Positions 1,509-62,879 of a stretch of 64,000 bases of DNA are shown here, in pieces (positions within the stretch are counted from its first letter, which is position 1; the number at the start of each line of letters is the position of its first letter). The DNA is from a virus, in IMG/VR virus record IMGVR_UViG_3300034060_000074; one strand, given 5' to 3'. A model generated the notes under the pieces. It searched no databases, was not told where the DNA came from, and worked only from the letters and a program-made list of their open reading frames with translations. The position numbers and the translations under genes are program-made.

Positions 1509-2009
1509 TTAACGAGGTTCTGTAGTTGTTGTACTGGTGGTACTAGTAGACGTACTAGTAGACGTACTAGTAGAAGTAGTTGTTGTTGTAGGTGTTGCTG
1601 TAGTAGTGGTAGTAGTAGTTGTATTACTAAAACTTACTTCAGGATCAAAACTAGAACATGTACAACCAGCTCCTGCTGTAATAACTGTTGTAGTTCCTGC
1701 TGCATCTGCTGCAGATATAGAACCAGTTACAGCACATATAGTGGCTACTAATAAATTGCTACCAACTAAGTTTACAGTTTGTGTGCTGTTGTCAACACCA
1801 GATCTGTAAGTGATAACTGTTGATACAGCACCTTCAGCAGTTGCTATAATTTGATAAGAGGTACCACCACTGTTACACTCGTACCCTTGTACTTGCTGCC
1901 AGTTACCCACTTTTGGTTTTGTTCGTCTAAGGATTAAGCTCCCTGCAACTACTCTGCCACTACCATCGTAGCGGACATAAGCTTTAAGATCACGATTGTT
2001 ACTTCCCAT
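1509..2009 (-). CDS. Putative virion-associated protein with a C-terminal poly-Thr/Ser tail
   Basis: N-terminal KAYVRYDGSGRVVAGSLILR domain; last ~36 aa are almost all T/S. Confidence 0.75.
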   Translation of the reverse strand: MGSNNRDLKAYVRYDGSGRVVAGSLILRRTKPKVGNWQQVQGYECNSGGTSYQIIATAEGAVSTVITYRSGVDNSTQTVNLVGSNLLVATICAVTGSISAADAAGTTTVITAGAGCTCSSFDPEVSFSNTTTTTTTTATPTTTTTSTSTSTSTSTSTTSTTTTEPR

Positions 2010-2025
2010 TGTTTAAATTTTATGG

Positions 2026-3042
2026 TTAATAGTTAAGGTTATATTTTTGTTTCAATTCTAATAATTGTTGTACGTAATAATGATTAGCGTGTTTTTTAGA
2101 ACCTTCATCATTTAATACTACGTCTAAGTGTGTATCTTTAAAAGGATCTTTACCAGCGTGATATGCTCCTTTATAGAAGGCAGGATATCCCATACTGTTT
2201 TGTCCTGTAATTCCTGCATTGTGTAGAAGTGTTGTTCTATCCAGTTTCTCAATTGGATCTGAAGACCAACAAAATTCTAATTCAGGAATGTTCTTAGTCT
2301 CTTGTTCTCTAAGCCAAATGTTCCATAGCACAGCCCACATATCTGCACACCAGCTTTGAAACCCTTTGTTCTCATCTTTAAAGAACTGTTTGTTTATGTT
2401 CTGAAGATATGTACGAATAAGTACAGAATCATTCATCACCTTCTTCCAGAAGTCAGAATCTATGTTCTTAAGGAAGTATTGAGCTCCTCCTGAATGTTCA
2501 TTGTTAGCTTCAGCTATTTCTCTATTGATGCCCACCAAGCTTGTAATTTCAGCTAGAACATCTCTAGTTTTGTATTCTTCAAGCTTCTCTGGAAGCACAT
2601 CTCTCACTTTACTATCAAAATATGAAGCATTGATATAACTGTTTGTATCAGATAGATAGTTTATATCATCATCTTTAAACTCATCAATGTTAAATTTATC
2701 TGTAAATATGACATCACAATCACAGTAAAACACTGCTTTGGTGATCATATCAGGATTGTCCTGAAAATACCTCATTAAGCAATAGGGACGTAGAATAGGA
2801 ATATACACTCCTAAATACTGACTAACGTCTCCTGTATCCTTGTAGAAAGCAAACTGTGCTTCTGGATACAGCTCCATTATCTTCTCCCATTTACCATTGT
2901 ATTCTCTAAAACTAGGTGTGTACACTAAAACAATTGCCTTGTCTGAGTGCCCAAGCTTCTTCAAGCTTTCTAACCATAGATGTACCTGCCATGTGTAGTA
3001 GACATCATCTGGCTGGGCACAGATAAATTTAAGATCCTTCAT
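2026..3042 (-). CDS. GT-A fold glycosyltransferase resembling plant peptidyl-Ser galactosyl / Hyp-arabinosyl transferases (GT96/GT95-like)
   Basis: YYTWQ near the N-terminus, DxD (FYCDCDVIF), WCADMWAVLWN and a late LLHNAG. This order recalls the Y..WQ / DxD / W..EMY / H pattern of SGT/HPAT enzymes (from memory). Confidence 0.55.
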   Translation of the reverse strand: MKDLKFICAQPDDVYYTWQVHLWLESLKKLGHSDKAIVLVYTPSFREYNGKWEKIMELYPEAQFAFYKDTGDVSQYLGVYIPILRPYCLMRYFQDNPDMITKAVFYCDCDVIFTDKFNIDEFKDDDINYLSDTNSYINASYFDSKVRDVLPEKLEEYKTRDVLAEITSLVGINREIAEANNEHSGGAQYFLKNIDSDFWKKVMNDSVLIRTYLQNINKQFFKDENKGFQSWCADMWAVLWNIWLREQETKNIPELEFCWSSDPIEKLDRTTLLHNAGITGQNSMGYPAFYKGAYHAGKDPFKDTHLDVVLNDEGSKKHANHYYVQQLLELKQKYNLNY

Positions 3043-3068
3043 ATGTAGTTTTTGTTGGTTTCTCTTTA

Positions 3069-3218
3069 TTAAGGAGTAGCTGTTGTTGTTGTACTAGTTG
3101 TACTAGTTGTGGTAGTATTAGCAGCAGTCACTCTAATCAATTGTTCTAATTGCTTAGATATTTGCCAAAGCAAATTATCTGTAGTACTCCAACCTATTTG
3201 TCTTGATGGTATTGCCAT
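3069..3218 (-). CDS. Small protein (49 aa) with a poly-Thr tail
   Basis: Not in the ORF track; hand translation MAIPSRQIGWSTTDNLLWQISKQLEQLIRVTAANTTTTSTTSTTTTATP; fills the gap between two genes. Confidence 0.8.
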   Translation of the reverse strand: MAIPSRQIGWSTTDNLLWQISKQLEQLIRVTAANTTTTSTTSTTTTATP

Positions 3219-3235
3219 TATATTAATATTTTATA

Positions 3236-4324
3236 TTATCCTACTTGATTTACTGTTACAATTAATCCAGGAATAGCAGGAATATCTCCTGAAGCTACAG
3301 CTGATGTAATTGCTATTGCATTATCTGCATTACTGTTTATTTCCCACTTAAGCTGTACATATTCATTAGCCACTGTTGTCTTAAAGAAAAAGTTCCATGC
3401 TGGTACAACATATATAGAGTTGGAAGGAAATCCTATTTGTGAAGCACTAATAGGTACACTTACACCATTTTGTGCTAACCAAATATGAATATGTGTAGCA
3501 GTGTTACCACTATTTTTTACCATCTGAGCACTAAACGCTATATTATATACACCAGGATTAGCTATTGTTATTTGAGAACCAGAAACAAGTGAAACTCCAT
3601 TGTTCCATGGATCTGAATTATTAAGACCCATTGTAAGAACAGCTCCTGCAACACCTGTTTGAGTAGTAGTGTCATAGAAAGATCCTAAATAACCAAATCC
3701 TCCAGCAGCCCCACTTGTTCCTGATGTACCTGATGTGCCTTTTGTTCCTGAAGACCCTGATGTTCCGCTTACTCCTGATGTACCAGAAGAACCTGTCGTA
3801 CCACTTGTTCCGCTAGTACCAGCGGTTCCACTTGTTCCATTAACACCACTTGTTCCAGAAGAACCAGTTAGTCCTGATGTACCTGACGTACCATTAGAAC
3901 CATTACCACCAGCAGCACCATTAAGGTTTACACCCCATGAGGTGTAAGTTCCTGATCCTACCACTTCAGAAGGAGCATCAAACACCAAAACCCCTGTAGC
4001 AGGGTTGTAGGATATAATCATTGAAACCTGATGGTTACTAATGTTATAAGCTATCAATATATCTTGAGCAACTGTGTATGCCAGTCCTGTACCTACAGTG
4101 ATGGTTCCACCAGTTCCTAATGTAAATGATGTAGAAGATGTAGTTTGATATCTGTCTCCAGATGCACCAGTTAACCCAGATGTACCAGATGTGCCTGAAG
4201 ATCCATTTGTACCTGATGTGCCAGCTACGTTTTTGATCAGGGTATCTAAATTAAGCCACCCCTTGTAACCATTACAAGGTTCGCATCTCTGATCCCAAAA
4301 ACCAGCTTTAATAAACGTAGGCAT
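3236..4324 (-). CDS. Collagen-like (Gly-Thr-Ser) fibre with a C-terminal C1q/BclA-C-like beta domain
   Basis: Two G-X-Y runs made of G/T/S flank an ~85-aa globular insert; C-terminal YLGSFYD...SQITIANPGVYNIAFSAQ resembles a TNF/C1q-like jelly-roll head. Confidence 0.65.
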   Translation of the reverse strand: MPTFIKAGFWDQRCEPCNGYKGWLNLDTLIKNVAGTSGTNGSSGTSGTSGLTGASGDRYQTTSSTSFTLGTGGTITVGTGLAYTVAQDILIAYNISNHQVSMIISYNPATGVLVFDAPSEVVGSGTYTSWGVNLNGAAGGNGSNGTSGTSGLTGSSGTSGVNGTSGTAGTSGTSGTTGSSGTSGVSGTSGSSGTKGTSGTSGTSGAAGGFGYLGSFYDTTTQTGVAGAVLTMGLNNSDPWNNGVSLVSGSQITIANPGVYNIAFSAQMVKNSGNTATHIHIWLAQNGVSVPISASQIGFPSNSIYVVPAWNFFFKTTVANEYVQLKWEINSNADNAIAITSAVASGDIPAIPGLIVTVNQVG

Positions 4325-4346
4325 ACTAGTGCAATTAAATAATTTT

Positions 4347-7998: not shown

Positions 7999-8367
7999 TT
8001 AGTAGGGCTGATAGGATTTCTCCTCTACAAAGTCAGACCCATACTTAATATTAATTTCTTTTTTAATATATGCTCGCTTGTCATTCAATCTATAAACAGA
8101 TCTAGCTAGGTCAACAAACTCTTCTCCAAAACTACTAGATCTTTCAAAGTCTCTTAGAAGATCTTCCACCTTCCAGAGAAACTGGTTCACCTTAAGAAGT
8201 TCATCAGTCATAGGATCATGTAATATCTCAGGATCTATCACTGTGTTTAGGTAGTTTTTTTCCTTGAAAACATTAACCAATTTGTCTTTGTCCTTTATGT
8301 TCAAAGCTTTGATAGATAATATTGTCCATTTATCTACCACTTCTCCTATAGAAACTTCTATTTGCAT
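7999..8367 (-). CDS. DUF6165-family protein (probable start MQIEVSIGE at 8367)
   Basis: IEVSIGEVVDKWTILSIK...LWKVED..R...F..LARSVY..ND.RA.IK.EIN..YGS..VEEKSY pattern. Confidence 0.75.
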   Translation of the reverse strand: MQIEVSIGEVVDKWTILSIKALNIKDKDKLVNVFKEKNYLNTVIDPEILHDPMTDELLKVNQFLWKVEDLLRDFERSSSFGEEFVDLARSVYRLNDKRAYIKKEINIKYGSDFVEEKSYQPY

Positions 8368-8377
8368 ACTAAAAATG

Positions 8378-8408
8378 TTTGATATTCCACGCAAATATAC
8401 TAATTTTG
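8378..8408. promoter_or_regulatory. Back-to-back divergent Bacteroidota-type promoters
   Basis: Plus strand TTTG (8378-8381), 19 nt, TAATTTTG (8401-8408); minus strand TATATTTG (8392-8399), inside the 58-nt gap between divergent genes. Confidence 0.65.
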
Positions 8409-8425
8409 TTGTAAATACAATTAAT

Positions 8426-11400
8426 ATGCCCAACAGTTATACATATTTTAAGGAAGAAGTCAAGGAATGGTTCAAGAATAATGTTCCTGCTAGTACAAGA
8501 ATATTAGATATAGGCCCTGGACAAGGTACATATGGTAAGCTTTTAAGTGATATTGGGTATAGAGCTATAGATGCTGTTGAGGTGTGGGAACCCTACATTA
8601 GTGAGTATAAACTATGGGAGTATTATGGGATTATATACAACAATGATATACGTGAGTTTGATTGGTCTGAGTATGATTTTATCATCCTAGGTGATGTGTT
8701 AGAACATTTAACAGCTGAAGAAGGACAAAAGCTTATCAATGATATTGCCATGGCTAGGAAGCAATGTTTGGTTGCTATTCCATATATGATGGAGCAAGAT
8801 GGTGAGCAGTATGGTAATACATATGAAACCCACCTGCAGGCAGACCTTACAAAGGAAGTGATGGCAGAGCGTTACCCTACACTAGACTTGCTCTATGCAA
8901 ATGAGCATTATGGGTATTATGTAAGTAAGAAGGTGGTAGACAAAGCATTTGTACTCTATGCCACAGAAGCCTATTATGATATTGTGACAGCCTGTGTACA
9001 TTCTCTTACAACATTTAGTCAGTATCCTGTATTTGTTTACATGCTTAACTCTGACAAAAAGGTACCCAGAGCTACAACCATTAAATGGAACTGTGATATA
9101 GATCCAATAGAATACAACACCAAAGACCAGTTCTACATCAACAGGACAGATGATAGAATATATAACATCCTCATACAGCGTCCACTGATTGTTATAGACT
9201 GTCTAAAGTATGCTGACAGTGTGATGTATGTAGACAGTGACAGTGTTGCTACACCTTTTGTAGACAAAGTGTTTAATTATCCTGTCTCTGAGTATCCCCT
9301 GTTTACATCTAGTATCTATGACCAAATGTTTCTGAATGGAAAAGGAGATCTTGAGAAACATATATGTGAACTTCTAGCTATAAAGAGAGGCAGGTATATA
9401 CAAACAGGATACTTCCTAGCTAGTGTGAGCTGTCTGAAGTTCTTAAAGGAGTGGGCTAACATGTGTACTCATCCTACAATACTAAAAGACTTTAAGAAAT
9501 ACGCACCCTTCCATGAAGAAACTGTAGCCAATGCTGTACGCTGGAAGTATGAAATAGATCAGTCATTACCACTCATCTATACCAATGCTAGCTTGGATGT
9601 ACTAGAGAACATAGATAAATATGAGTTTGGTAAAGAACATTGGGAATGGTTTAAGCTACCTGATAGTAAGCATGAGTTGTTCTTTTACCATGGAGAGAAA
9701 CGACCAGATGTAATGTATAAGATGATTGATAGATTGAAAGGTAATAAAAGAGTGTTGTTCCTAGCTCCTCATCTATCTACAGGTGGTATGCCTGCGTTCC
9801 TATTAAAGAGAATACAAGAGATAAGCTACTGCACAGACATCTATGTAGTTGAGTACCAATGCCATAGCTTAGACTTTGTTGTACAGCGTAATGCAATCAA
9901 AGAGATTGTAGGATCTAACTTCACTACACTGTATGAGAACAAGATGGAACTGTTTGATATTATTGATAGCTGGAAGCCAGACATCATTCATCTGGATGAG
10001 CCTGCTGAGAGATATGACAGAGAGATGATTACTAAGTTGTATGATACAAACAGATCATACAAGATTGTAGAGACATTCCATGATGTAGCATTTAAGCCTG
10101 AAGAAAAAATCTTTCAGTCAGAAGCATATGCATTCTGTACACCATATCACCTCAATAAGTTTACCAACCTACAAGGTTATACAAAGGTGATTGAGTTTCC
10201 TATAGAGGATAAAAGGCCAGATGCTGTAGGTAAAATAATAGCTAAGAATATACTAGAGTTTGCTCCATTCAAGACCAGTGTTGTAAACATAGGACTATGG
10301 ACCCCAGGCAAGAATCAAGCAGAGGGAATAGAGATAGCTAAGAAGTACCCTCATATGGATTTCCATTTTGTAGGTAATCAAGCTGGTAACTTCAAAGACT
10401 ACTGGGAACCATTAATGAAAGACTTACCACCTAATGTAAAGATATGGGGAGAAAGAAATGATACATGGAAGTTTATGAGAGCTGCAGATATATTCATGTT
10501 CAACAGCACATGGGAATGCAACCCTCTTGTACTTAGAGAAGCAATCAGCTATGGTCTTCCTATCATAGCTAGAAACCTTCCTCAATATGAAGACATGTTT
10601 ACTAAGTATTTACAACCAATAGATACAGACTTAAACACTATACAAACTAACTATGAAGTACCTACAGAGAATACATTCAGACAAGACTACATAGACTTCT
10701 ACAACCACGTAGACTCTATTTCTTTACAGCCACAAGATGTAACCATCACACAACACTATGTTGTTAATCCATTCCTTGAGATAACAGGTGTGAGTGATAG
10801 TAATTTCAAGGTGGAATTCTATGATGAGCAGGGAGCGTGTCACTACAGTAGTGTGATCAAAACCAACCAGTGGGTAAAGCTAGATAGAAGCTATTACACT
10901 AAATGGAGAAGTAAGATATGGCAGGATGATGTTCTTATACATGACTACACATTAGACTATACAGACAAGACTGTCTTCATCTACTTTGATAGTGAGAGTC
11001 TTGGAGATACAATTGCATGGATACCATACTGTTTAGAGTTTAAGAAGAAGCACAACTGTCATGTTGTTGTTAGCACATATAAAAACTTCTTGTTTGAGAA
11101 AGCATATCCAGAGCTTGAGTTTGTTGCACCTGGAACACCTGTCAATGCTTATGGAGAATACATAATAGGTTGGAGATATAATAAAGACCAAGAGCCTGAG
11201 TTGTGTAACACTATACCTCTACAGAAAGCAGCTGCTAATATACTTGGACTACCATATAGAGAAATAAGACCTAGGTTTGCTTATACACCTGTGGAGTTTG
11301 AAGACAAGAGTAAGTATGTAACTATTGCTACAAACAGTACAACAGGATGTAAGTTTTGGACTAGAGAAGAGTGGCAGGAGTTAATTAACTATCTAGTGGA

Positions 11401-11803
11401 GAAAGGATACAAGGTGTATAATGTATCTAAAGAAAGAAATCCATTTGACAGATGTGTACAGATAGAAGATACATCAATGGATAACACCATTAATATGATT
11501 TGGAACAGTAAGTTCTTTATAGGACTATCTAGTGGATTAAGCTGGTTAGCTTGGATGATGGGTAAGCAAGTGGTGATGATATCTAACTTCACCAAAGCAG
11601 ACCATGAGTTTCAATCCAACTGTATAAGAATTACAGATGAAACTGTATGTCATGGCTGTTGGAACAATAAAAACTTCAAGTTTGATAGAGGAGACTGGAA
11701 CTGGTGCCCAATCTGGAAGGGTTATGACAGACAGTTTGAATGCCATAAAACCATCACAGCAGGTAAAGTTATAGCTTCCCTTCAGTCTTTAATTGCTCTC
11801 TAA
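8426..11803 (+). CDS. Four-domain enzyme: SAM methyltransferase + GT-A (DxD) + GT4-like + TibC/BAHT-like protein heptosyltransferase domain
   Basis: ILDIGPGQGTYG...ILGDVLEH (class I MTase); YVDSDS (DxD); FLAPHLSTGGMP...KNQ...ADIFMFNSTWECNPLVLREAISYGLPII (GT4); ESLGDTIAW...FIGLSSGLSWLAW...CHGCWN-C-C (TibC-like). Start moved to the MPNSY Met at 8426, just after the promoter. Confidence 0.8.
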   Translation: MPNSYTYFKEEVKEWFKNNVPASTRILDIGPGQGTYGKLLSDIGYRAIDAVEVWEPYISEYKLWEYYGIIYNNDIREFDWSEYDFIILGDVLEHLTAEEGQKLINDIAMARKQCLVAIPYMMEQDGEQYGNTYETHLQADLTKEVMAERYPTLDLLYANEHYGYYVSKKVVDKAFVLYATEAYYDIVTACVHSLTTFSQYPVFVYMLNSDKKVPRATTIKWNCDIDPIEYNTKDQFYINRTDDRIYNILIQRPLIVIDCLKYADSVMYVDSDSVATPFVDKVFNYPVSEYPLFTSSIYDQMFLNGKGDLEKHICELLAIKRGRYIQTGYFLASVSCLKFLKEWANMCTHPTILKDFKKYAPFHEETVANAVRWKYEIDQSLPLIYTNASLDVLENIDKYEFGKEHWEWFKLPDSKHELFFYHGEKRPDVMYKMIDRLKGNKRVLFLAPHLSTGGMPAFLLKRIQEISYCTDIYVVEYQCHSLDFVVQRNAIKEIVGSNFTTLYENKMELFDIIDSWKPDIIHLDEPAERYDREMITKLYDTNRSYKIVETFHDVAFKPEEKIFQSEAYAFCTPYHLNKFTNLQGYTKVIEFPIEDKRPDAVGKIIAKNILEFAPFKTSVVNIGLWTPGKNQAEGIEIAKKYPHMDFHFVGNQAGNFKDYWEPLMKDLPPNVKIWGERNDTWKFMRAADIFMFNSTWECNPLVLREAISYGLPIIARNLPQYEDMFTKYLQPIDTDLNTIQTNYEVPTENTFRQDYIDFYNHVDSISLQPQDVTITQHYVVNPFLEITGVSDSNFKVEFYDEQGACHYSSVIKTNQWVKLDRSYYTKWRSKIWQDDVLIHDYTLDYTDKTVFIYFDSESLGDTIAWIPYCLEFKKKHNCHVVVSTYKNFLFEKAYPELEFVAPGTPVNAYGEYIIGWRYNKDQEPELCNTIPLQKAAANILGLPYREIRPRFAYTPVEFEDKSKYVTIATNSTTGCKFWTREEWQELINYLVEKGYKVYNVSKERNPFDRCVQIEDTSMDNTINMIWNSKFFIGLSSGLSWLAWMMGKQVVMISNFTKADHEFQSNCIRITDETVCHGCWNNKNFKFDRGDWNWCPIWKGYDRQFECHKTITAGKVIASLQSLIAL

Positions 11804-12155
11804 TCTTTGTAGCAGAGATGTCACTTATTTCTTGAGGAGGAACATGTTCAACAACATCATATCCTACACCTCTACCAAAGTTAATAGACTCAATGTCAGG
11901 AATGATTATTAGTCTCACTTTGTTTTCTTCAATAAGATCTATTAGTTCTTCTGATAGATTCATCATTATTTGATATGCTGACCAAGGGTTCTTTTCATCT
12001 TGCTTAACATCTCGTACACATAGCAAGACCTTCTTTCCCTGGTTTAACTGTTGATCAATTAACCATCTGTGACCTTCGTGCCATGGTTGCCATCTTCCAA
12101 TGAACATAGCGTAGCCATCTGTCTTTCTATTTCCTTCAGCTAAAATATTCTGCAT
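11769..12155 (-). CDS. HxGH nucleotidyltransferase (cytidylyltransferase/NadM-like fold); possible minimal sulfate adenylyltransferase
   Basis: FIGRWQPWHEGH...NPWS...ISATKIRE motifs; coupled to the APS kinase gene. Confidence 0.7.
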   Translation of the reverse strand: MQNILAEGNRKTDGYAMFIGRWQPWHEGHRWLIDQQLNQGKKVLLCVRDVKQDEKNPWSAYQIMMNLSEELIDLIEENKVRLIIIPDIESINFGRGVGYDVVEHVPPQEISDISATKIREQLKTEGKL

Positions 12156-52900: not shown

Positions 52901-55093
52901 GATAGGGTCTGTATAGCTAAATGCAGGTGGACCACCAGCACAAGCAAGTGGAACAGTAATTGTGTAAGCTGTAGCTGTAACATTTGTAAATGTAGCAGCT
53001 CCACTATTTACAACAGGAAGTGTAATAGAACATATCTGAGTTGTTGCTGTTGTAAAAGCAAAAATTGCTGTCTGTCCAGTGTTGCAATCTGTATATTGTA
53101 AATTACCATTAATAGTTGCTGTCACTTTGAATGTATCACATTGAGAATTGTATGCGTTGCTTTTCTCAAGTAAGAAAGGATCTTCGTTAAGATCATTATA
53201 AGGATAGTTTGGATAGTAGTAAGGAGTTCCTTCTCTATCATATTTACCCACGTTTCTAAGGATGCCCTTAGCAATAATAGATTTATTTGTACTTCTATTA
53301 CCTCTCACTATCTTAAATCCAACAATAGAGGCTTTCTCTGCAGCTGTTAAACTAGATGCTTGGATGAGAAATATTACTTGTTGTACATCTATCTTTACAC
53401 CAATTGGATATACAGCACTAGCTGATTGCATTGTTGGTTGTATCTGTCCACCAGAATATATAATAGGAGCACTCTCAAAGTGAGGACTTACAAGTACATC
53501 AGGAAATTTATGATGTCTAATTGGTTCATTAGCAAGGTCTCCCCATACATCCACATTACATGGATACAGATCTGTAGATTCCCAATATGCAAAGTCTCCA
53601 GATTGATATGGGTATGCATCTCCTATCTTTTCAGCATCTGTTGTAGGAACAGGATATGTAGCTGTTACACTAGCTGTATTATATATTTTCCAATAAGGAG
53701 CACTAGTTCCTTCTCCAATAAAGTCATTGTTAGTATTTGGTACAACAATTAAATCATTAGATGTTGATGCTCTACCAGGAATATGGAAACCATCTGTTTG
53801 TTTACCATTGTCTAATAAAAAGACTATCTCAAATGCATATACCTCATCTCTTAAATAACCTCTAAGATTGGCAGTGTAGAAGCCATCAGCATACGTATTG
53901 TTAGCTGGTAGCTTATATGTCTCCCATTGAAGTTGAATTTGATTAGCAATACCTTGATAGTTAATTCTATCAATAGATGTGAGGTTATCCCATACAATAA
54001 CATCCTGTACGTTTGTAACATCTTGAGCAATATCATAATAAGCAAACTTCTCAAGTATGTCATTAAGACTCAAAGGAATTTGAGTTATGTTCTGACCTGT
54101 ATAAGTGATTGTTCTAGACTTATCTTGTATATTGTAAGTTCCTACAAGTTCTACAGTTGTGCCATTATTTATTGTTTTAATGACAGCCAAGTTAAAGTAT
54201 TGGAAGTATCCTGTAATATCTATGTCACTGATACTCAACACAATAGAGTTTCCTACAGAGTATTGAAAGTCAGGTGTTGTTATCTCTGTGTTTGCAATAG
54301 ATACAGGATTAGTAATTGAGTAGTATGATGTATATGCATCTCCTGATGCATTACAATATTGAATAGCAAATTGATAAGCTCCTGCTTTTAAATCTCCACC
54401 TACAACAATATCAGTAACATCTAAGTTAGGAATTGTGAAGTTAGGTTGCACCTTTAACTTATTACAGTCTAACGTTGCTTCAATATCTGGATCACAATTT
54501 TGATCACCTGTAAATATGGTGATATATGGAATTGAATCAATATTAATATATCTTCTTGGATTAAGACCATCTGTCCAATAGACCTCAGTGGTACAGTTGG
54601 TAATCTTATGTACAGCTTTATGAATAGGATAGTTGATGTCAAAGTTCAAACATGGAGAATTTGCACAAACTGTTAATTCTGTATCAGGGATTGGAGTACA
54701 TAATAAATGATATACACAGTCATTGTTATTCATATACCCTATCTCACTTCCTCCTGTTTCAGGATTAGCTAAGAAGAAGATGTGTTTATTTTTCTCTTGA
54801 ATGAAGTGTGTACCAATAAGTTGGTAGCCTTCAGGAAAATCTAAACAAGCTTCATTTGAAGGTTCATTCTGATAGTTTACAGAATTAGAGTCAAAGTTCT
54901 CTAATGCTGCGTTTAGGGCATAAGAAAGTTTCCCCTTCTGTATTTGATTTACAGAAGAGTCCATGTCTAGTCCCACTCTACCAAGATTAAATTCTTGTCT
55001 TACACTAGAGGTGCCTTGATTATCTGTTCCATCCATGTCCATATCTTGAGCTTCTGTTTGGTAATTCATATTGTGCAAAACGTTGTAAGTCAT
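50000..55093 (-). CDS. Muzzle/tail-stabilisation-like protein, N-terminal major part (true start probably 55042 or 55036)
   Basis: Beta-propeller-like N-terminus, YLRDEVYAFEIVF...GFHIPGR, FGGDTFISKF, WVSFHTYLP; position after ring/tube genes as in crAss-like phages; three Thr-rich inserts. Confidence 0.7.
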   Translation of the reverse strand: MTYNVLHNMNYQTEAQDMDMDGTDNQGTSSVRQEFNLGRVGLDMDSSVNQIQKGKLSYALNAALENFDSNSVNYQNEPSNEACLDFPEGYQLIGTHFIQEKNKHIFFLANPETGGSEIGYMNNNDCVYHLLCTPIPDTELTVCANSPCLNFDINYPIHKAVHKITNCTTEVYWTDGLNPRRYINIDSIPYITIFTGDQNCDPDIEATLDCNKLKVQPNFTIPNLDVTDIVVGGDLKAGAYQFAIQYCNASGDAYTSYYSITNPVSIANTEITTPDFQYSVGNSIVLSISDIDITGYFQYFNLAVIKTINNGTTVELVGTYNIQDKSRTITYTGQNITQIPLSLNDILEKFAYYDIAQDVTNVQDVIVWDNLTSIDRINYQGIANQIQLQWETYKLPANNTYADGFYTANLRGYLRDEVYAFEIVFLLDNGKQTDGFHIPGRASTSNDLIVVPNTNNDFIGEGTSAPYWKIYNTASVTATYPVPTTDAEKIGDAYPYQSGDFAYWESTDLYPCNVDVWGDLANEPIRHHKFPDVLVSPHFESAPIIYSGGQIQPTMQSASAVYPIGVKIDVQQVIFLIQASSLTAAEKASIVGFKIVRGNRSTNKSIIAKGILRNVGKYDREGTPYYYPNYPYNDLNEDPFLLEKSNAYNSQCDTFKVTATINGNLQYTDCNTGQTAIFAFTTATTQICSITLPVVNSGAATFTNVTATAYTITVPLACAGGPPAFSYTDPITQSLTNITVQKGTSITVNSSTVPVRVSGCTGYTIVANNNNKNTECYPAQLDGFNNNESPYRQVFNSPETSFGQPTLGNVLKLESVLFGAGRAHFVQVKEHAMYKLLTKQAQIDALNSSRAIADLGGFNATAMFTAYQSYLQIYVNGVSRRNFAYSFNSISSYDYSEAIQNSATNPLTGTLGIKQRQLDRSQYVFPGVQSVGDDYDLNNWNRESSVYTKSIETRTGVGSVPALPYPNKTPNLVVAGVSQISDNSRFTLGESGNCGTPEFQQDIKVVSYYGSIKTINNGQWGQIYSYQTIDTGFQRIFNSLPASGVEVVFGGDTFISKFGFKTKLPFFIDNRVKAPDDSDIYYDEIGNIAYPEYWYSARSVLYDYYVGSTLMKNIISVKAHYLDCPNDDIVDNTSTSTTTTSTTPPIGTTAPGTFNYVYDGKMYLFAYGVPYYYVESSINVDLRQAFNNLEGDYYPHVSSGIPDQWFQENRVPIAFDNTYYYNTTFTKQNVENFFSHLPTDWVQQLCYTYFPFRAIYSDRQESYSDNRINSWLIYRPASFFDFPQNYGNLVSLDGIQNRATLARFENKTLLYNNLLTIDTSNPQSAYLGGGELFGNAPPIDFAETDLGYVGCQNKMLLRIPQGQVTVDAKRGQIFLITGTQATDISGFGSGLNRFFTDHLSFEILRYFPNVDIDNNFKNIGLHGVFDSKFDRVIITKLDYIPQPGKEIFYDEVAKEFYVNQPTAGNTSVKRFVAVTDLEYFCNKSWTASFNFNTKSWVSFHTYLPNFYIGENNFFYSGLNESCDISAIAVTEIPSPTTTTTTTVIYYCNLSGTAVDICALEGTAVNLCILEGTAVNVGCVGIEVECNGISLTLFGPFGTCEGTFFAPLYVTSLPITVGTQLYNDQCLTTEFTFGDPPGTYYTSINGNPYTIDPSGVILSIESCTPTTTTTTSTSTSTTTTTTTAAPQCNLAGTAAATS
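50371..50458 (-). repeat. 30-bp tandem repeat x3 encoding CxLxGTAV units
   Basis: TTACTGCTGTTCCTTCTAAT occurs twice exactly plus one variant; peptide CNLSGTAVDI-CALEGTAVNL-CILEGTAVNV. Confidence 0.8.
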
Positions 55094-56489: not shown

Positions 56490-57223
56490 TAGTTGCTTGG
56501 TTTTACAGCATTTGGTGCCTGCCCATCTGCACCATCGTCAGATATATCTGTTTTAAGTCTAAAGTAAGTAGATAACAACTTTTGAGAAGTGAGCTCTAAC
56601 ACTTGCTTCTCTAAATATCCAGGACATCCATATTCCTTATCTAAAGGATTCATACAGACTTCTTCTATAGGATATACTATACTACCACAGCCACACTCAG
56701 GGAACATTATTTCATTAGGTACATCTTCTTCAAAGAAAGCAGATATTCTTGTTGCCTTTAATAATGGATTGTTAATATATAAATAGCCACCATTAGCTAT
56801 CCAATAGTATTGTTCATTCTTTATAATAGGAAGTTTCAATAAGTTTAAATACCTATTGATTGTAATCTCTTTAAATCTTTTACCTTGACCACCCATAGCG
56901 TTGATAGAATATACACCCTGAATTACATATTGATAGTTTCCTTCAGATATGCGAGGAAGTTTATATCTGCTTCTTGCTACATTGCATGGATCTACAAATT
57001 CACAACATTCAGAAATAGGAACCTCTACCATCTCTAAACAAGGGATGGTAGTAAATAAAGTATCAGTGGCCCAAAGCTTTCTAAGATTTGTTTCACGCTT
57101 AACCAATAACTGTGTGTTGTTCTTAATCTCAGATGCCACCACCCTATCAGTGATAAGGTTATCTGTGGATAGCAACTTGTGCATTCCACGTACATCTGAA
57201 ACTAATTTCCTTAATGTTGCCAT
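56489..57223 (-). CDS. Putative tail ring/adaptor structural protein
   Basis: Position beside the IHF-like gene; helical termini and Cys-containing core. Confidence 0.5.
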   Translation of the reverse strand: MATLRKLVSDVRGMHKLLSTDNLITDRVVASEIKNNTQLLVKRETNLRKLWATDTLFTTIPCLEMVEVPISECCEFVDPCNVARSRYKLPRISEGNYQYVIQGVYSINAMGGQGKRFKEITINRYLNLLKLPIIKNEQYYWIANGGYLYINNPLLKATRISAFFEEDVPNEIMFPECGCGSIVYPIEEVCMNPLDKEYGCPGYLEKQVLELTSQKLLSTYFRLKTDISDDGADGQAPNAVKPSN

Positions 57224-58473
57224 TATAAATACTGTTTGAATATATTTGTCATTCCATCAGTCTCATCTATCAAGAATGCTGTCACTTCTGCTTTAGACAT
57301 TACGTGACCATTCTTATCATCCCAAAGACTCTTTGCATTTGAGAATGCTGGAATTTGGTAAAATTTAATACCATTAAAATCATGACTCACCTCGTGGTGT
57401 TTGTCTCCTGTAAATATATAGAAGTTATCATAATCAGACCAGTTGTTCTTAAACTCAATTGGAAATATACCAGCAAGCTTTACAGGCTTAATAGCATCTC
57501 CATGGTTAAACATCATTGCTGTATTACCATATCCTATGTATTTTCTATATTTAGGGCTGATGTTAAAGTCAGCTCTTTCTTCTTTTCTAAAATACGTTTG
57601 TAACCAATTAACCATATGCCATCCTACAAACTCATCATGATTACCAGCTACATACACTACGTTAACATTTTTAGCATATTGTAATAACATTGTAATTACA
57701 AATATTTCATGATTACATATCTTAAGAAATCCTTCATGATATGTACCTATGTTAGTTTGAGGAGTTCCTTTTGTAGTGTTGTTAGTATGCTCACTGTTAA
57801 ACTCATCTGAACCAATTATGTAAGTGATGTGATCTAGATTGTTAGATAGTTGAGCTTGAGTTAAAATAAGTTCTGTTTTAAACATCATTCTAGCAAACCT
57901 TTCTTCTATATCATTATTTCCATCTATGTCAAACTTATTCAAATGTGAGTCTTGTTTATTAATAACTAAACAAGCATGTTGCTTAGTTGGAACAAACTTA
58001 GGACTTATAACTGCTTGACTTACAGGCTCATATGAAGCTAAAAAGTCTACAAAACTATCTTGAAAAACTTGCTCTGTAGACTTCTTTCCTAACCATGCTT
58101 TGACTTGCCAATGAGGATTTCCACCATTCCCCCAGAAGTTCTGTACATATTTAGTTATTTCCCATTTCTCTGTATCTATCTTACACTTATTAATTAACTC
58201 ATCTAAGCTCTTTACTTCTTCGCTAAAATTAGCTACCACCTCTCCTGTACCCTTTACAAGGTCTTCTGTAAACTTAACAACCCTATCTTCTAAGTCTGTT
58301 ATATAGTTTCCAATCTCTGCATTTTCTTGAGCCACCTCTTCATTTCTTAGTTCTTTTAGTAAATCATCAACCTCTAATTCTGTAATTCCAAGCTTATCAG
58401 CGTAGAACTTCTTGCTCTTTTTCCAATGTAGAATGTCTTCTAACTGTTGTAGTAAGGGTTGGTTTTCAGGCAT
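57223..58473 (-). CDS. Calcineurin-like metallophosphoesterase with an N-terminal helical/HTH-like region
   Basis: QDSHLNK, GSDEFN, AGNHD, NHGD, GDKHH metal-binding motifs. Confidence 0.8.
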   Translation of the reverse strand: MPENQPLLQQLEDILHWKKSKKFYADKLGITELEVDDLLKELRNEEVAQENAEIGNYITDLEDRVVKFTEDLVKGTGEVVANFSEEVKSLDELINKCKIDTEKWEITKYVQNFWGNGGNPHWQVKAWLGKKSTEQVFQDSFVDFLASYEPVSQAVISPKFVPTKQHACLVINKQDSHLNKFDIDGNNDIEERFARMMFKTELILTQAQLSNNLDHITYIIGSDEFNSEHTNNTTKGTPQTNIGTYHEGFLKICNHEIFVITMLLQYAKNVNVVYVAGNHDEFVGWHMVNWLQTYFRKEERADFNISPKYRKYIGYGNTAMMFNHGDAIKPVKLAGIFPIEFKNNWSDYDNFYIFTGDKHHEVSHDFNGIKFYQIPAFSNAKSLWDDKNGHVMSKAEVTAFLIDETDGMTNIFKQYL

Positions 58474-58667: not shown

Positions 58668-59216
58668 TTAACAGCTTACATAGTTTGTAAGTTCTCCATT
58701 AACATCTACTTCCACTGCATAATCAGTACCACTTCTGGTTAATTTTCTCCATCCCACTGAACCAACAAATGGTGTTGTCAAACTTGGACTATCATAGAAA
58801 ATCATTGTTACAATAGGAACAGTATATCCAGGTAAAGCATAAACAAGACTTGTTGTAGTTGAACCACTACAAGCACTAGCAGAACTACCTGTAGCTGAGT
58901 TATCAATTGTATATTCCACAGGTCCTGCTACAGTAGTTGTTGTAGTTGTTGTACTAGTACTAGTAGATGTGGTAGATGTAGTTGTTGTGGTGGTTCCTCC
59001 AGAAATAAGCATGTCAAGAGAGTTGGTACATGTTGCCAAAGAGGTCACTCTAATAATAGTAGCTCCATCAGGTACACCTGTTAGGGTGTATCCTGCTTGT
59101 AAGGCTGCTTTTGATATACCAGAAGCTAAGGGTGTAGTGTATCCATCTGCATCTGAATAGATGTCAAATGGGCCTGTATCTGCCCCAGCTAGGGTTAATG
59201 TTACTAAGACTGTCAT
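58668..59216 (-). CDS. Two-domain putative virion decoration protein with a poly-Thr linker
   Basis: Domain A (LTLAGADTGPFDIYSD...), a ~21-residue T/S linker, domain B (YDSPSLTTPF...VDVNGELTNYVSC). Confidence 0.7.
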   Translation of the reverse strand: MTVLVTLTLAGADTGPFDIYSDADGYTTPLASGISKAALQAGYTLTGVPDGATIIRVTSLATCTNSLDMLISGGTTTTTTSTTSTSTSTTTTTTTVAGPVEYTIDNSATGSSASACSGSTTTSLVYALPGYTVPIVTMIFYDSPSLTTPFVGSVGWRKLTRSGTDYAVEVDVNGELTNYVSC

Positions 59217-59511: not shown

Positions 59512-60690
59512 TTAAGGGATGTACATTATATAATATGCAGCAATTACAGGTTGTATGTTTAAATGAGCTCCATCATTACCTGTAGGGTCAACTGTTATAG
59601 CCACATTATTAGGAGCATTGGAAGTCACTGTAATTCCAGTGGTAGCTGTTGTTGTTTGAACATTAAAAGGGCTTCTGTTTACAATACCAATATTACCAGC
59701 ACTATCCCAACCTTCTGGTGAATTGCCAAGATAATGACTATGACCAGGGTCGTTCAATGTAACAGTTGCTGTACCTAAAGCATTATGTGAGTGGGCTGGC
59801 AATTGTGAAGGAATAAGCACTATTGTGTTTGCTCCTGCTGTACCAGATAAAGCATAGTTAGGGTTGCCAGCAAAAACAGGATTAACAGCAGCATCAAGAC
59901 CAATTCCTACAGGAGGTACACTAGCAATAGCTCCTACAGCAACACGTCCTCTTTTATCAGGAGTGCCATTTAAGCCATTGCATAGATACACCTTATTGAA
60001 ACCATTTGCTGGAATACCAGCACCTGTTCCATCAAAGTCAGTCAATGACCCATAATATTCATATGCTACAAAAGGAACCATCTTTGAAGACTGCTGGGTA
60101 GAACCACCTGCTTGACTAGCTAAATAAGCAGCAATTAAAGCATCTAGGTCTGCAAGCTTAACATAGTTTGTATCTAAGTCTAAAGTAAGAGCAGCTAAGT
60201 TAGCTTCAACTATACAAAGCTTTGTTATAACAGCTTGTAATACAGCATGTGTATCACTAGAGTCTGTTACACCACTTAGACAGTCTACATCATAATCAGC
60301 ATTCAATATAGCAATTTCAGCTTCTACAGCATCAACTTGTACTTGTAAATCACAAGCAGCTCTTACTAAAGCAGACAACACCTCAACTAAGTTAGGTGTT
60401 CCTACTGGTAAGTATTGATCTACTAGTTCACAATAATAAGCAGGATTGATAGTTATGTCAATACCTGTTCCATCTAAGAAGGAAACAACAGTATCAATTA
60501 ATATATTCTCTACAGTGAGCAATGAGTCTCCTGTTGTAATACCCAATGCTTCAGAGCCAATACCTGTATATCTAACACATTGATCAGATACAATCTCTAC
60601 ACAGCCATTATAACAGGCATCACAAGGTCTTATTGTTGTAATGGTAGAAGTGGTACTTGTAGTAGTAGTAGTAGTGGTATCTTCTGGCAT
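59512..60690 (-). CDS. Fibre protein with a tail-collar (microcystin-dependent-like) domain and an N-terminal poly-Thr tract
   Basis: VYLCNGLNGTPDKRGRVAVGA...GANTIVLIPSQLPAHSH...HLNIQPVIAAYYIMY collar signature; central coiled coil. Confidence 0.75.
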   Translation of the reverse strand: MPEDTTTTTTTSTTSTITTIRPCDACYNGCVEIVSDQCVRYTGIGSEALGITTGDSLLTVENILIDTVVSFLDGTGIDITINPAYYCELVDQYLPVGTPNLVEVLSALVRAACDLQVQVDAVEAEIAILNADYDVDCLSGVTDSSDTHAVLQAVITKLCIVEANLAALTLDLDTNYVKLADLDALIAAYLASQAGGSTQQSSKMVPFVAYEYYGSLTDFDGTGAGIPANGFNKVYLCNGLNGTPDKRGRVAVGAIASVPPVGIGLDAAVNPVFAGNPNYALSGTAGANTIVLIPSQLPAHSHNALGTATVTLNDPGHSHYLGNSPEGWDSAGNIGIVNRSPFNVQTTTATTGITVTSNAPNNVAITVDPTGNDGAHLNIQPVIAAYYIMYIP

Positions 60691-60698
60691 TTTATAAT

Positions 60699-60965: not shown

Positions 60966-61077
60966 ATTTAATAAGGTTTGTAGCTTGTTTAACAGCAGCA
61001 TTGCATGCTGAACATAAGCCATTAATCAATTGACATCCACAACCAAATTTAGCTCCACAGTTTCTACAGTTTGCCAT
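60943..61077 (-). CDS. Cys-rich small protein (44 aa), possible metal-binding
   Basis: Not in the ORF track; hand translation MANCRNCGAKFGCGCQLINGLCSACNAAVKQATNLIKYVAAKIN (CxxC, CxC, CxxC). Confidence 0.7.
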   Translation of the reverse strand: MANCRNCGAKFGCGCQLINGLCSACNAAVKQATNLIKYVAAKIN

Positions 61078-61078
61078 A

Positions 61079-61636
61079 TTAATAAAAGTTAATGATGTAA
61101 TTATTTCCAGAACAACCACAGTTGCTCCTAATAAAATTGTTTAACATATTATTTGCTTGCATATAAAGCTTATTAGCAGTATCTATAGCACAGTTGTTTG
61201 CAGCAGCTATTGAACCTGATATCATATAATAGATGCTAGTCAATGCCACTTTTGATTGTGTTTTGATAGCAAGATCACATTCCATTAAATCAAGTTTCAT
61301 AAAAGCATTATCAAACTTCTCTTGTATAAGCTCAGTACGCATGATGTTTCTTTCTACATGATACGTAATAGCAGGTGCCACTGTATACCTTAGATAGTAT
61401 ATACCATCTGGTAGAGGAATTAATGGTTCACCTACAAGACTAAGTCCTAAAGATGTAGAATTGAATATATTAAAGTCATTTGGAACAAATGGTAAAGATA
61501 CCACTCCAAAATTGGGTACTGTTATTTCTATTGTAGGGGAGCTCACAACAGGAGGATCTGTGTCATATGTTGAAGCGTCAGCAATACCTAGTGTTAAGGT
61601 ATTGTAAGTTGGTATTACCAATATATCTAAGACCAT
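61079..61636 (-). CDS. Putative structural protein (185 aa)
   Basis: Beta-rich N-domain (LPDGIYYLRYTV) plus helical Cys-containing C-domain; within the head-tail module. Confidence 0.6.
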   Translation of the reverse strand: MVLDILVIPTYNTLTLGIADASTYDTDPPVVSSPTIEITVPNFGVVSLPFVPNDFNIFNSTSLGLSLVGEPLIPLPDGIYYLRYTVAPAITYHVERNIMRTELIQEKFDNAFMKLDLMECDLAIKTQSKVALTSIYYMISGSIAAANNCAIDTANKLYMQANNMLNNFIRSNCGCSGNNYIINFY

Positions 61637-61640
61637 GTTA

Positions 61641-61692
61641 TTTAAAATAAAAATGCCAGAGGATTTGAGAATATCCTCTCACCCTCTGGCAT
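61641..61692 (-). terminator. Intrinsic terminator after the 386-aa structural gene
   Basis: Perfect 10-bp inverted repeat ATGCCAGAGG (61653-61662) / CCTCTGGCAT (61683-61692) followed by TTTTTATTTT on the minus strand. Confidence 0.8.
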
Positions 61693-61718
61693 AGGTTAAT
61701 ATGATAACTACCTTACTA

Positions 61719-62879
61719 TTAAGGAATTAAAGTAGTTGTTGTTGAAGTACTAGGCCATACAGTTGTAGTGGTAGACGTTGTTGTAATACAAGCGTTATCA
61801 CTAGCAACAGTTCCTAAAGCAGCTTCTAATATAGCTTCAATTGCAGCACTTAAGCTCTGAGGACTAGCTATAATTACAGTGCTATCTTCCATAATGTAAT
61901 CACCCCATTGATAAGCTGACTTGTCATACTCGTTAAACTTGATGTAGTAGGTATCATAGGTAGTACCATCTGTTACCCAACTTTCAAAGTTTTCATTATA
62001 ACCAGCCATTCTGTAAAGATGCTTTAAGTAACCAGCTTGGTAGCTATAGAAATTCTTTTCTAATTGTTGAATTTCTGCAGAAGTACCTAGAGGGTAGCTA
62101 GAGCGTTGAGTGATAACAGGTTCAGCAACAAAGTTACATCTGTCAGCCACAATAAAGTCAGCAGTAGTTGCAGGACCAGAATACACAAATGTGCGGAAGT
62201 AAAATCTGTCATACTCCCAAGGGAATGCAGCAACGTCACATGGTTGACCATATTGAGTTAGAGGCTTACCAGAGATAACTAATTTAGCACTTGCATCATT
62301 ACCAACTCTTTGGAATTGATAGAAAGTGTTAAAGCTAATGTTGTCTGGGTTATCACCAGGAGCTTGTTGTGTTAACTTGATGATAAATTGATCAATTAAT
62401 GCAGGAACGTCTACATCAGTGCAAGGATCACCACCACAATCACAACATGGAGCTTGTACAGTTACACTACGAGTGAAACCATTGAAGTATAATGTGTCAA
62501 CGTAAGAAGAGTGACCACGTAACGTTAATGTTACGATCTCACCACATTTTACTGTCCAATCACCAACTTCAGTTACTTGGTTAGCTACTGTAGCACATCC
62601 TGTAACTTTGTACCATTCTGTTACATTAGATTTGCAAGAAGAACCTGAAGGACATCCAGAAATTTTATCTGAACGCTTAGATCCTTGTAAATAAGTGTTT
62701 ACTCTACCTTGAGCTGCATAAAAATAGGGGGATGCTGCAATGTTACCAGCGTTAGCCACTGTATAATCACTACGAAACAATCCAAATTGACCAGCTGTTA
62801 AATCTTGTGTTGAGCCAGAGCTAGGTAAAGTATTGCCTACTGGTACAACAAAGAGCGTGGTTAGGGAAAAATCTGCCAT
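61719..62879 (-). CDS. Putative auxiliary capsid/major structural protein with a C-terminal Thr tail
   Basis: Third gene of the conserved post-capsid trio of crAss-like phages (by position); followed by a strong terminator; ends CITTTSTTTTVWPSTSTTTTLIP. Confidence 0.55.
   Translation of the reverse strand: MADFSLTTLFVVPVGNTLPSSGSTQDLTAGQFGLFRSDYTVANAGNIAASPYFYAAQGRVNTYLQGSKRSDKISGCPSGSSCKSNVTEWYKVTGCATVANQVTEVGDWTVKCGEIVTLTLRGHSSYVDTLYFNGFTRSVTVQAPCCDCGGDPCTDVDVPALIDQFIIKLTQQAPGDNPDNISFNTFYQFQRVGNDASAKLVISGKPLTQYGQPCDVAAFPWEYDRFYFRTFVYSGPATTADFIVADRCNFVAEPVITQRSSYPLGTSAEIQQLEKNFYSYQAGYLKHLYRMAGYNENFESWVTDGTTYDTYYIKFNEYDKSAYQWGDYIMEDSTVIIASPQSLSAAIEAILEAALGTVASDNACITTTSTTTTVWPSTSTTTTLIP

Follow-up and report, generated by a model that had tools for sequence, protein, structure and literature searches.

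Why would a crAss-like phage carry, in the neighborhood of its tail and fiber genes, several glycosyltransferases (GTs), a methyltransferase, a sulfotransferase and an adenosine 5'-phosphosulfate (APS) kinase-like protein, and why do proteins encoded in the same region bear long runs of threonine and serine? These questions are raised by IMGVR_UViG_3300034060_000074, a linear 67.6-kb IMG/VR record with an estimated completeness of 58%, of which a 64-kb stretch (hereafter the window) was analyzed. Our results point to a probable answer: the phage O-glycosylates its own tail and fiber proteins by means of three enzyme cassettes, each matched to one type of acceptor. That its virion proteins are glycosylated at all is, judging from sequence, the slightly safer part of this proposal, and the sulfation step described below is put forward more tentatively, as a possibility that falls somewhat short of probable. 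An original prediction made from the window had envisaged a single system for glycosylation, methylation and sulfation. Its enzymes and their co-occurrence with the repetitive proteins stood up to analysis; the notion of one pathway gave way to at least three cassettes that have been gained and lost independently.

Tracts of poly-Thr/Ser occur in seven of 34 proteins, compared with a mean of 0.45 when residues are shuffled. All nine tracts that had been predicted are present, in frame within long minus-strand open reading frames (ORFs), as are the predicted (Gly-Thr-Ser)n arrays in two fibers, one encoded at 3236-4324 and the other, of 3083 amino acids (aa), at 14723-23974. The Thr and Ser codons within the tracts are mixed (ACT, ACA, ACC, AGT and TCT), indicating that the tracts are maintained at the protein level and are not DNA microsatellites. 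The tract carriers, together with a GT-A enzyme (P0002) encoded between the 166- and 49-aa carriers, are listed here (nt, nucleotide positions in the window):

1509-2009, minus strand: 166-aa protein, directly downstream of the P0002 gene, that has a conserved N-terminal domain of 45 aa and ends in 42 aa of poly-Thr/Ser (nt 1512-1637)
2026-3042, minus strand: P0002, a soluble GT-A glycosyltransferase with a DxD motif (D108, D110), candidate poly-Thr O-glycosyltransferase
3069-3218, minus strand: 49-aa ORF with a 16-aa poly-Thr/Ser C-terminal tail (nt 3072-3119), directly upstream of the P0002 gene
14325-14702, minus strand: 125-aa protein with a 24-aa poly-Thr C-terminal tail (nt 14334-14405), between the giant fiber and GT9-like genes
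50000-55093, minus strand: muzzle protein of 1697 aa (Pfam crAss_MUZ, 3.6e-30) with three poly-Thr/Ser tracts
58668-59216, minus strand: 182-aa two-domain tail-module protein with a 28-aa poly-Thr/Ser linker (aa 71-98, nt 58923-59006)
59512-60690, minus strand: 392-aa tail-fiber-like protein whose N-terminus carries a poly-Thr tract (aa 2-21, nt 60628-60687); it matches phrog_8469 (tail fiber protein) at 3.7e-16
61719-62879, minus strand: 386-aa conserved tail-module protein with a C-terminal tract (nt 61731-61784), between the Ring 3/4 and Ring 2 genes

These tracts are conserved features. Orthologs from about 80 relatives carry them at equivalent positions, including the linker of the 182-aa protein, which lies at the same place across about 80 relatives. 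Thr-tailed orthologs of the 125-aa protein were found in L002, L018, L023, L024 and L039. An alignment of 12 orthologs of the 386-aa protein revealed a near-invariant tail, ITxTTSTTTTVWPSTSTTTTLIP. The muzzle tracts (nt 50039-50116, about 50468-50488 and 51656-51706, corresponding to aa 1660-1685, 1536-1542 and 1130-1146) join small C-terminal domains and recur at equivalent places in nearly all muzzle orthologs. Just downstream of the muzzle gene, a 289-aa ORF (49119-49988, minus strand) matches the C-terminal end of phrog_15100 (positions 1588-1781), the PHROG of the muzzle N-terminus; the muzzle thus appears to be split into two ORFs, with small Cys-containing domains and Thr linkers at their junction.

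To compare gene content within the clade, we built a presence matrix from the window and nine near-complete relatives (10 genomes in all). Each genome has between four and nine ORFs with poly-Thr tracts, and these are confined to the tail module and the vicinity of P0002. The original prediction had placed tracts on the capsid as well, as part of a coat over the whole virion; this could not be upheld, as no capsid protein in or near the window has a tract, the Crass_capsid protein of a complete relative is tract-free, and the only carriers are tail, muzzle and fiber proteins plus the small ORFs beside the GT. The 386-aa protein was considered as a capsid protein and rejected, the Crass_capsid homolog being encoded by a separate 517-aa gene upstream. 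It has no Pfam or PDB match, a tblastn search with it returned no GenBank phage, and its AlphaFold2 (AF2) model, computed from the 12-sequence alignment, was poor (predicted local distance difference test score, pLDDT, of 50). PDB profile and sequence searches with the 392-aa protein and with P0003, the GT9-like protein described below, likewise yielded nothing useful.

The N-terminal domain of the 166-aa protein lies beside the GT in all 10 clade genomes. In relatives, a domain of about 45 aa followed by a poly-Thr tail makes up very small proteins (63-97 aa) encoded next to the GT-A gene (L006-L031; G001 67137-67649; G010 96461-97057), often as tandem duplicates. Their role could be that of small-scale decoration of the virion or of carriers dedicated to glycans.

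P0002 itself belongs to a family with 774 representative homologs at 50% clustering, most of them viral. Both Asp residues of its DxD motif are invariant in 60 aligned sequences, and the AF2 model built from this alignment is highly confident (pLDDT 97.3). When the model was compared with Swiss-Prot structures using Foldseek, the top nine matches were the plant enzymes SGT1, HPAT1-3, RDN1/2, PLENTY and NOD3, followed by glycogenin (top matches with E values from 4.6e-10 to 4.9e-7, template-modeling (TM) scores of 0.58-0.62 and 10-14% identity); in the PDB, the best structural matches were glycogenin and UGGT. The confident model and these matches agree with the earlier assignment of the protein as an SGT/HPAT-like GT. 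Sequence profiles were less informative: P0002 has no Pfam match, neither it nor 59 of its homologs matched the Pfam HPAT family (PF23452) at E≤0.01 or any other glycosyltransferase family in Pfam, HPAT is carried by only 10% of the members of one neighboring Atlas cluster, and a profile of the 60-sequence alignment retrieved nothing useful from the PDB.

If P0002 acts on the tracts, the two should be found together. The original prediction had proposed looking for this pairing across relatives, and within the clade P0002 and poly-Thr tracts co-occur in 10 of 10 genomes. The pairing also reaches far beyond the clade. By tblastn, relatives of P0002 were identified in 77 GenBank phages, mostly infecting Gram-positive hosts (lactic acid bacteria, enterococci, staphylococci and clostridia), and we inspected six distant phages by hand. 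In Enterococcus phage phiFL1A, the GT gene follows the major tail gene, and the major head and major tail proteins both end in poly-Thr. A poly-Thr run ends the major tail protein of Lactococcus phage bIL285 (from L. lactis IL1403), is present on the major head and tail proteins, as well as on a 125-aa protein, of Lacticaseibacillus phage iLp84, and occurs on the tail tube protein and a head-associated protein of Clostridium phage phiCTP1. Lactobacillus phage Semele and Chryseobacterium phage MA9V-3 each have poly-Thr on two ORFs upstream of the GT. In all six, the GT gene neighbors those for head, tail or decoration proteins with a poly-Thr end. Head proteins do bear poly-Thr tails in Gram-positive phages, in contrast to the clade studied here.

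The reverse test, in which IMG/VR stretches were selected for their tracts, agreed with this. Members of the P0002 family were present in eight of 118 loci containing (ACN)10, usually directly downstream of the tract, versus none of 117 (GAN)10 control loci (p=0.007); a whole-record search found the family in five of 34 records. Divergent loci retrieved with single divergent P0002-family sequences as queries had a poly-Thr ORF within 6 kb in 11 of 18 cases (five directly adjacent), versus 12 of 117 controls (p=5e-6). Because (GAN)10, when read in another frame of the complementary strand, encodes poly-Ser, a generic Ser/Thr-tract count in six-frame translations carries no meaning for these controls, and we used counts that were Thr-specific, collagen-specific or based on hidden Markov models (HMMs).

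A second enzyme, P0001, is paired with a different type of repetitive protein, the collagen-like fiber:

8264-11803, plus strand: P0001, a four-domain enzyme with methyltransferase, GT-A, GT4 and TibC/Aah-type domains (Pfam, NCBIfam, Atlas)
3236-4324, minus strand: 362-aa fiber (Pfam Collagen, 1.3e-11) whose two collagen-like (Gly-Thr/Ser-Ser/Thr)n arrays contain no proline and whose C-terminal head is globular
14723-23974, minus strand: 3083-aa tail fiber (Pfam Collagen, 2.8e-65) with a C-terminal Peptidase_S74 chaperone (1.3e-7)

The four domains of P0001 are a class I S-adenosylmethionine (SAM) methyltransferase (aa ~50-224), a GT8/Nucleotid_trans-type GT-A domain (aa ~225-520), a GT4 domain (aa ~520-840) and a TibC/Aah-type O-heptosyltransferase domain (aa ~840-1179, nt ~10781-11800). 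All four had been assigned in the original prediction, and each is borne out by HMM or fold evidence. The TibC-type domain scores 241.5 bits against the equivalog model TIGR04414 (cut-off 200; aa 844-1175 aligned to positions 25-373 of 374) and matches the structure of TibC in the PDB (4rap) at 5e-45. In the pairwise alignment to 4rap, the catalytic Asp110 is conserved along with Thr226, Lys230 and Trp305, all four Cys residues of the iron finger (339/342/358/370) align within CxxC, WC and EC motifs, and the position that governs stereoselectivity is Ser, as in AAH. The P0001 ORF opens at its 5' end with TTG, and its likely start is Met38, at nt 8375. A 144-aa ORF without a family match (7999-8433, minus strand) overlaps the 5' end of the TTG-started form; with the start at Met38, a short divergent intergenic region remains.

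The 3083-aa fiber includes about 600 aa of proline-free (Gly-Thr/Ser-Ser/Thr)n repeats, at aa ~330-650 and 745-1015. At least 95 viral contigs encode a TibC-like domain (39-99% identity). Of 80 such loci, 56 have a collagen ORF that is Ser/Thr-rich and proline-free no more than 10 kb from the domain, compared with none of 235 controls. After clustering, the same association was seen in 14 of the 18 groups formed at 70% identity and in each of the four deep ones; the median distance was 780 nt. Within the clade, the collagen fiber is present in all seven TibC-positive genomes and in none of the three TibC-negative ones, one of which is complete, with terminal repeats. No autotransporter was found in the window or its relatives. 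Matches to the TibC-like domain (LR756501, LR756503, LR756504 and PP395634) include huge metagenome phages of 595-735 kb as well as Microcystis phage Mel-JY01, in which the gene with this domain is annotated as an FkbM methyltransferase.

The remaining enzymes form a cassette next to the giant fiber:

11769-12155, minus strand: 128-aa HxGH nucleotidyltransferase, NMNAT/cytidylyltransferase-like (Pfam CTP_transf_like, 5.9e-5), the last gene of the sulfation cassette
12140-12574, minus strand: 144-aa P-loop kinase, APS-kinase-like (Pfam APS_kinase, 6.8e-11), in which the motifs GQPASGKTT and DGD are present
12571-13389, minus strand: 272-aa sulfotransferase of the 3'-phosphoadenosine 5'-phosphosulfate (PAPS) type (Pfam Sulfotransfer_3, 2.5e-20; phrog_27463, 1.8e-42)
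13391-14266, minus strand: P0003, a 291-aa GT9-like protein (heptosyltransferase fold) of a viral family whose Atlas neighbors carry PF01075 (Glyco_transf_9)

The sulfotransferase scores 74.1 bits against a Sulfotransfer_3 cut-off of 27 and has an N-terminal PRAGST loop and an RDxxDxxxS stretch. Its closest named family is the carbohydrate sulfotransferase NoeE (4e-11), at a score below the cut-off for that family (42 versus 500 bits). The APS-kinase-like protein passes the Pfam cut-off (42.9 versus 21.1) and falls below that of NCBIfam (51 versus 127), covering positions 4-103 of a 152-position model. P0003 has no Pfam or PDB sequence match of its own and is linked to GT9 through its Atlas neighbors. 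With these qualifications, the earlier GT9, sulfotransferase and APS kinase calls hold, the last of them for an APS-kinase-like protein. No ATP sulfurylase (Sat or CysDN) could be recognized in the 128-aa protein, which matches only NMNAT/cytidylyltransferase-type models, the NMNAT-type matches in NCBIfam being below cut-off; it is only through co-occurrence that this protein may be tied to sulfation.

The partner of this cassette appears to be the solenoid of the 3083-aa fiber, a Cys-rich region of about 1900 aa with 85 GGxxNxA/S motifs. The nucleotidyltransferase, kinase and sulfotransferase occur together in five of the 10 genomes, and these are exactly the five that have a fiber rich in GGxxNxA/S (5/5 versus 0/5). 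Cassette and solenoid states are interleaved on a tree of three conserved proteins, requiring at least four gains or losses. Across 22 sulfotransferase loci, a GT9-like gene lies immediately upstream in all 22, with the kinase present in 19 and the nucleotidyltransferase in 17. Where the flank was long enough to judge (about 17 loci), a solenoid fiber was directly upstream in 14, compared with none of 235 controls. The solenoid was also considered as the feature that tracks TibC and was rejected as such, a solenoid fiber being present in four of seven TibC-positive and one of three TibC-negative genomes. A role for the 128-aa nucleotidyltransferase in making ADP-heptose for the TibC-type domain was rejected too: the gene follows the sulfotransferase, including in a TibC-negative genome, and is absent from three TibC-positive genomes. 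As an observation on the solenoid itself, its repeats (within 15330-20850) are about 14 residues long, follow a GGxxNxA/S-G-xxS pattern, are unusually rich in Cys and show a weak match to Pfam LbR_Ice_bind (9.3e-4).

A natural negative control is provided by Leptolyngbya phage Lbo-JY46, the only GenBank phage with a homologous capsid protein (26% identity) and muzzle (32%, about 1570 aa), which shares the muzzle, capsid and phosphoesterase genes with the clade. All eight enzyme parts are missing from this phage, and its annotated genes contain no poly-Thr tract or Ser/Thr-rich collagen; the few Ser/Thr-rich windows in its genome are all antisense to annotated genes. It had been argued in advance that finding Thr-tailed proteins equally often in relatives without the GT island would count against the idea; in this one genome, the absence of the enzymes goes with the absence of the tracts.

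From the observed sequence features, enzyme families and co-occurrence, we infer a set of acceptors, donor sugars, an order of steps and a benefit. No signal peptide or membrane segment was seen in the sequence of any of the enzymes, and they should therefore be cytoplasmic and modify virion proteins soon after these are synthesized. Late in infection, these soluble phage enzymes would O-glycosylate tail and fiber proteins in the host cytoplasm before assembly. P0002 would add sugars to the hydroxyls of the poly-Thr/Ser tracts on the 386-, 392- and 182-aa proteins, the muzzle and the small Thr-tailed proteins. The TibC/Aah-type domain of P0001 would prime Ser/Thr residues in the proline-free collagen-like stalks, heptose or a related sugar being the probable first unit; extension of this glycan would fall to the fused GT4 and GT-A domains, and its capping to the methyltransferase domain. 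In the third cassette, the APS-kinase-like protein would supply PAPS, possibly helped by the small nucleotidyltransferase, and the GT9-like protein and the NoeE-like sulfotransferase would add a sulfated sugar linked to the GGxxNxA/S solenoid of the giant fiber. Possible benefits are stabilization of the proline-free triple helices, shielding from proteases or antibodies, or adhesion. The methylated, sulfated and polyanionic nature of the glycans, and the roles that the original prediction gave to such a coat, we infer only.

A different reading of the same genes is that the tracts and arrays are unmodified spacers or stalks and that the GTs and the sulfotransferase instead modify something of the host during infection, such as its lipopolysaccharide, capsule or S-layer glycans, for example in blocking superinfection or remodeling the envelope; their nearness to the fibers would then reflect a shared, variable host-interaction region. 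GT4, GT9 and GT8 folds are indeed typical of enzymes that build envelope glycans, glycolipids are the substrates of NoeE-type sulfotransferases, and the enzymes are located in the most variable part of the genome. We nevertheless consider this reading unlikely. The TibC-type domain passes the equivalog model for protein O-heptosyltransferases and keeps the iron finger used to recognize a protein substrate, each enzyme tracks one specific sequence feature of virion proteins, and none has a membrane anchor. Moreover, the P0002 family is found inside the head-tail operons of Gram-positive siphoviruses, right after genes whose products end in poly-Thr, a site for which an envelope enzyme offers no reason.

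The division of labor could also be reversed, with host enzymes glycosylating the tracts and the phage enzymes merely tailoring the glycans (by extension, methylation or sulfation) or making donors. Many Bacteroidota and cyanobacteria possess general O-glycosylation, and clade members without TibC or without the sulfation cassette still have tracts. This arrangement seems less probable again, given that P0002 and a TibC-like or GT9-like enzyme have been kept in every clade genome, that the relative without enzymes is also without tracts, and that the pairing of GT and tail recurs in phages of hosts from different phyla; furthermore, general O-glycosylation in Bacteroidota is periplasmic, whereas virions are assembled in the cytoplasm. 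Least credible is the idea that the GTs and the methyltransferase hypermodify phage DNA to resist restriction. It has in its favor the SAM methyltransferase domain and the statement, in the passage of PMC12619734 that cites Pyle et al. 2024, that DNA-glycosylating GTs are common in phages. On the other hand, genes of a hydroxymethyl-pyrimidine pathway were not seen in the window, the TibC-type and SGT/HPAT-like folds are protein-directed, and the enzymes co-vary with protein features and sit in the late structural region, not in the replication module.

Several points weigh against glycosylation of the phage's own tail and fiber proteins as we propose it. The enzymes and their presumed acceptors are adjacent, so that co-inheritance could in part reflect the exchange of whole fiber cassettes and inflate the co-occurrence. 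A total of 110 of the 118 (ACN)10 loci lack a member of the P0002 family, and seven of the 18 divergent GT loci lack a strict tract within 6 kb. The three TibC-negative genomes form one subclade and represent only one or two independent events; the negative control is a single genome. As regards the enzymes, the reading of P0002 as a protein GT would follow from fold likeness in a modeled structure (TM score about 0.6, 10-14% identity), with no match to a GT family in Pfam. The sugar-binding Arg286 of TibC aligns with Thr in P0001, next to an indel, and the donor may therefore differ from ADP-heptose. Finally, the APS-kinase-like protein is short and scores below the NCBIfam cut-offs, and the nucleotidyltransferase looks NMNAT-like.

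Comparison with known systems helps to place the proposed one. The exosporium protein BclA of Bacillus anthracis has a collagen-like Gly-X-Thr stalk and a globular C-terminal head, and its Thr residues are O-glycosylated. The phage repeats differ in being proline-free (GTS/GSS versus GPT), and BclA is a spore protein whose rhamnose-anthrose glycan is made by unrelated enzymes. The plant enzymes SGT1 (GT96) and HPAT/RDN/PLENTY (GT95) resemble P0002 in their GT-A fold and DxD motif and glycosylate hydroxy-amino acids in extended, repetitive peptides; unlike them, P0002 is a soluble phage protein and not a Golgi membrane protein, and its presumed acceptor is poly-Thr, not Ser-Hyp4. In rhizobial Nod-factor sulfation (NodP/NodQ with NodH/NoeE), the PAPS supply is encoded beside a carbohydrate sulfotransferase, as in the sulfation cassette, although the phage lacks a CysD/CysN-type sulfurylase, has a short kinase and would modify a glycoprotein fiber instead of a lipochitooligosaccharide. 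In TibC/AAH (BAHT; PDB 4RAP/4RB4), a catalytic Asp110, the sugar-binding residues Thr226, Lys230, Arg286 and Trp305 and a four-Cys iron finger have been described (PMC4358343). The P0001 domain keeps the catalytic Asp, three of the four sugar-binding residues and the iron finger, and it belongs to a cytoplasmic enzyme type that acts on Ser in repetitive fibrous proteins; it differs in being phage-encoded and fused to GT4, GT-A and methyltransferase domains, and in tracking a collagen-like repeat, not a beta-helix passenger.

The closest functional precedent comes from mycobacteriophages, the only phages for which virion glycosylation has been shown according to the sections of PMC11256854 and PMC12619734 that report Freeman et al. 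2023 (Che8, Rita and others). As described in those sections, the GTs there are also phage-encoded, the glycans are located on the C-termini of virion subunits (here, Ser/Thr-rich termini would serve), and shielding has been proposed, as it is here. The two systems are otherwise distinct. A tblastn search with P0001 and P0002 against 50,697 phage records produced mycobacteriophage matches to the methyltransferase domain only (29-32% identity), and the GTs are not homologous to those of the Che8 type. Carriers in the present phage are tail, muzzle and fiber proteins, not the capsid; collagen-like stalks and a solenoid are among the presumed acceptors; there is a sulfation cassette in addition; and the phage is of the crAss-like, podovirus type, in contrast to the siphoviruses and myoviruses of Actinobacteria. 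A full-text literature search found no paper on virion glycosylation in crAss-like phages, on GT-paired poly-Thr tails or on sulfated phage glycans.

The assignment to crAss-like phages follows from the structural genes, which like nearly all genes in the window are on the minus strand. Pfam identifies a crAss-type tail of Ring 3/4 (weak), Ring 2, Ring 1 and the muzzle (50000-55093); among crAss-type virion families, PF24228, PF25702 and PF25731 pass their cut-offs and PF25710 matches weakly. A complete relative with direct terminal repeats, G006, has a portal gene, an SPFH protein and a Crass_capsid gene (6e-28) just upstream of the region matching the window, and the crAss-like gene order (Ring 1, Ring 2, Ring 3/4, muzzle, capsid) is present. 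The SPFH/Band 7 domain protein (6.3e-27; L176:6569-7099, minus strand) lies between the portal and capsid genes. After the tail genes come giant proteins without a family, the 3083-aa fiber, the enzyme island, a lysis region with a GH19 lysin, and the small second fiber. The giant ORFs (29236-40956, minus strand, 3906 aa, and 24122-29236, minus strand, 1704 aa) have no Pfam or PHROG match, and their counterparts in relatives are 3655-5004 aa long; they are presumably crAss-type virion RNA polymerase or cargo proteins.

Amid the tail genes, between those for the 182-aa protein and Ring 2, lies a 416-aa protein of the Mre11/metallophosphoesterase type (57223-58473, minus strand; phrog_704, 7.5e-42), an odd site for a nuclease-like gene. 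Among 300 related viral contigs, the best 80 encode it at 75-100% identity; being a widespread protein of this type, it was rejected as a structural marker. With regard to hosts, Lbo-JY46 (PP438436.1; L498-L500) is a cultured cyanophage of 125 kb and 32% GC. The clade has no close cultured member, because this phage is only distantly similar; the clade may infect cyanobacteria rather than Bacteroidota.

The combination of all three cassettes in one crAss-like phage is unusual. A bolder generalization, which we regard as rather doubtful, is that crAss-like and many other phages use a modular glyco-code, in which exchangeable cassettes each read one low-complexity acceptor grammar in tail proteins: the SGT/HPAT-like GT-A would read poly-Thr, the TibC-type fusion proline-free Gly-Thr-Ser collagen, and the GT9-like enzyme with the sulfotransferase the GGxxNxA/S solenoid. 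The solenoid cassette would then produce the first sulfated glycoprotein fiber in a bacterial virus, with PAPS made via the 128-aa NMNAT-like protein acting as an ATP sulfurylase. The core enzyme is present in cultured phages and prophages (phiFL1A, bIL285, iLp84/PLE3 and MA9V-3), so the proposal that it modifies poly-Thr tails is directly testable.

If our interpretation is correct, glycosylation of tails and fibers would be widespread and would reach crAss-like phages through enzyme families unrelated to those of mycobacteriophages. It would matter for how stable phages are and how they adsorb to their hosts, for their recognition by the immune system during phage therapy, and for engineering particles that display glycans. 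It would also give a function to poly-Thr tails, to proline-free collagen-like fibers and to a large family of 'hypothetical' phage proteins, as well as to phage sulfotransferase and APS-kinase genes, which are usually read as auxiliary genes for sulfur assimilation.

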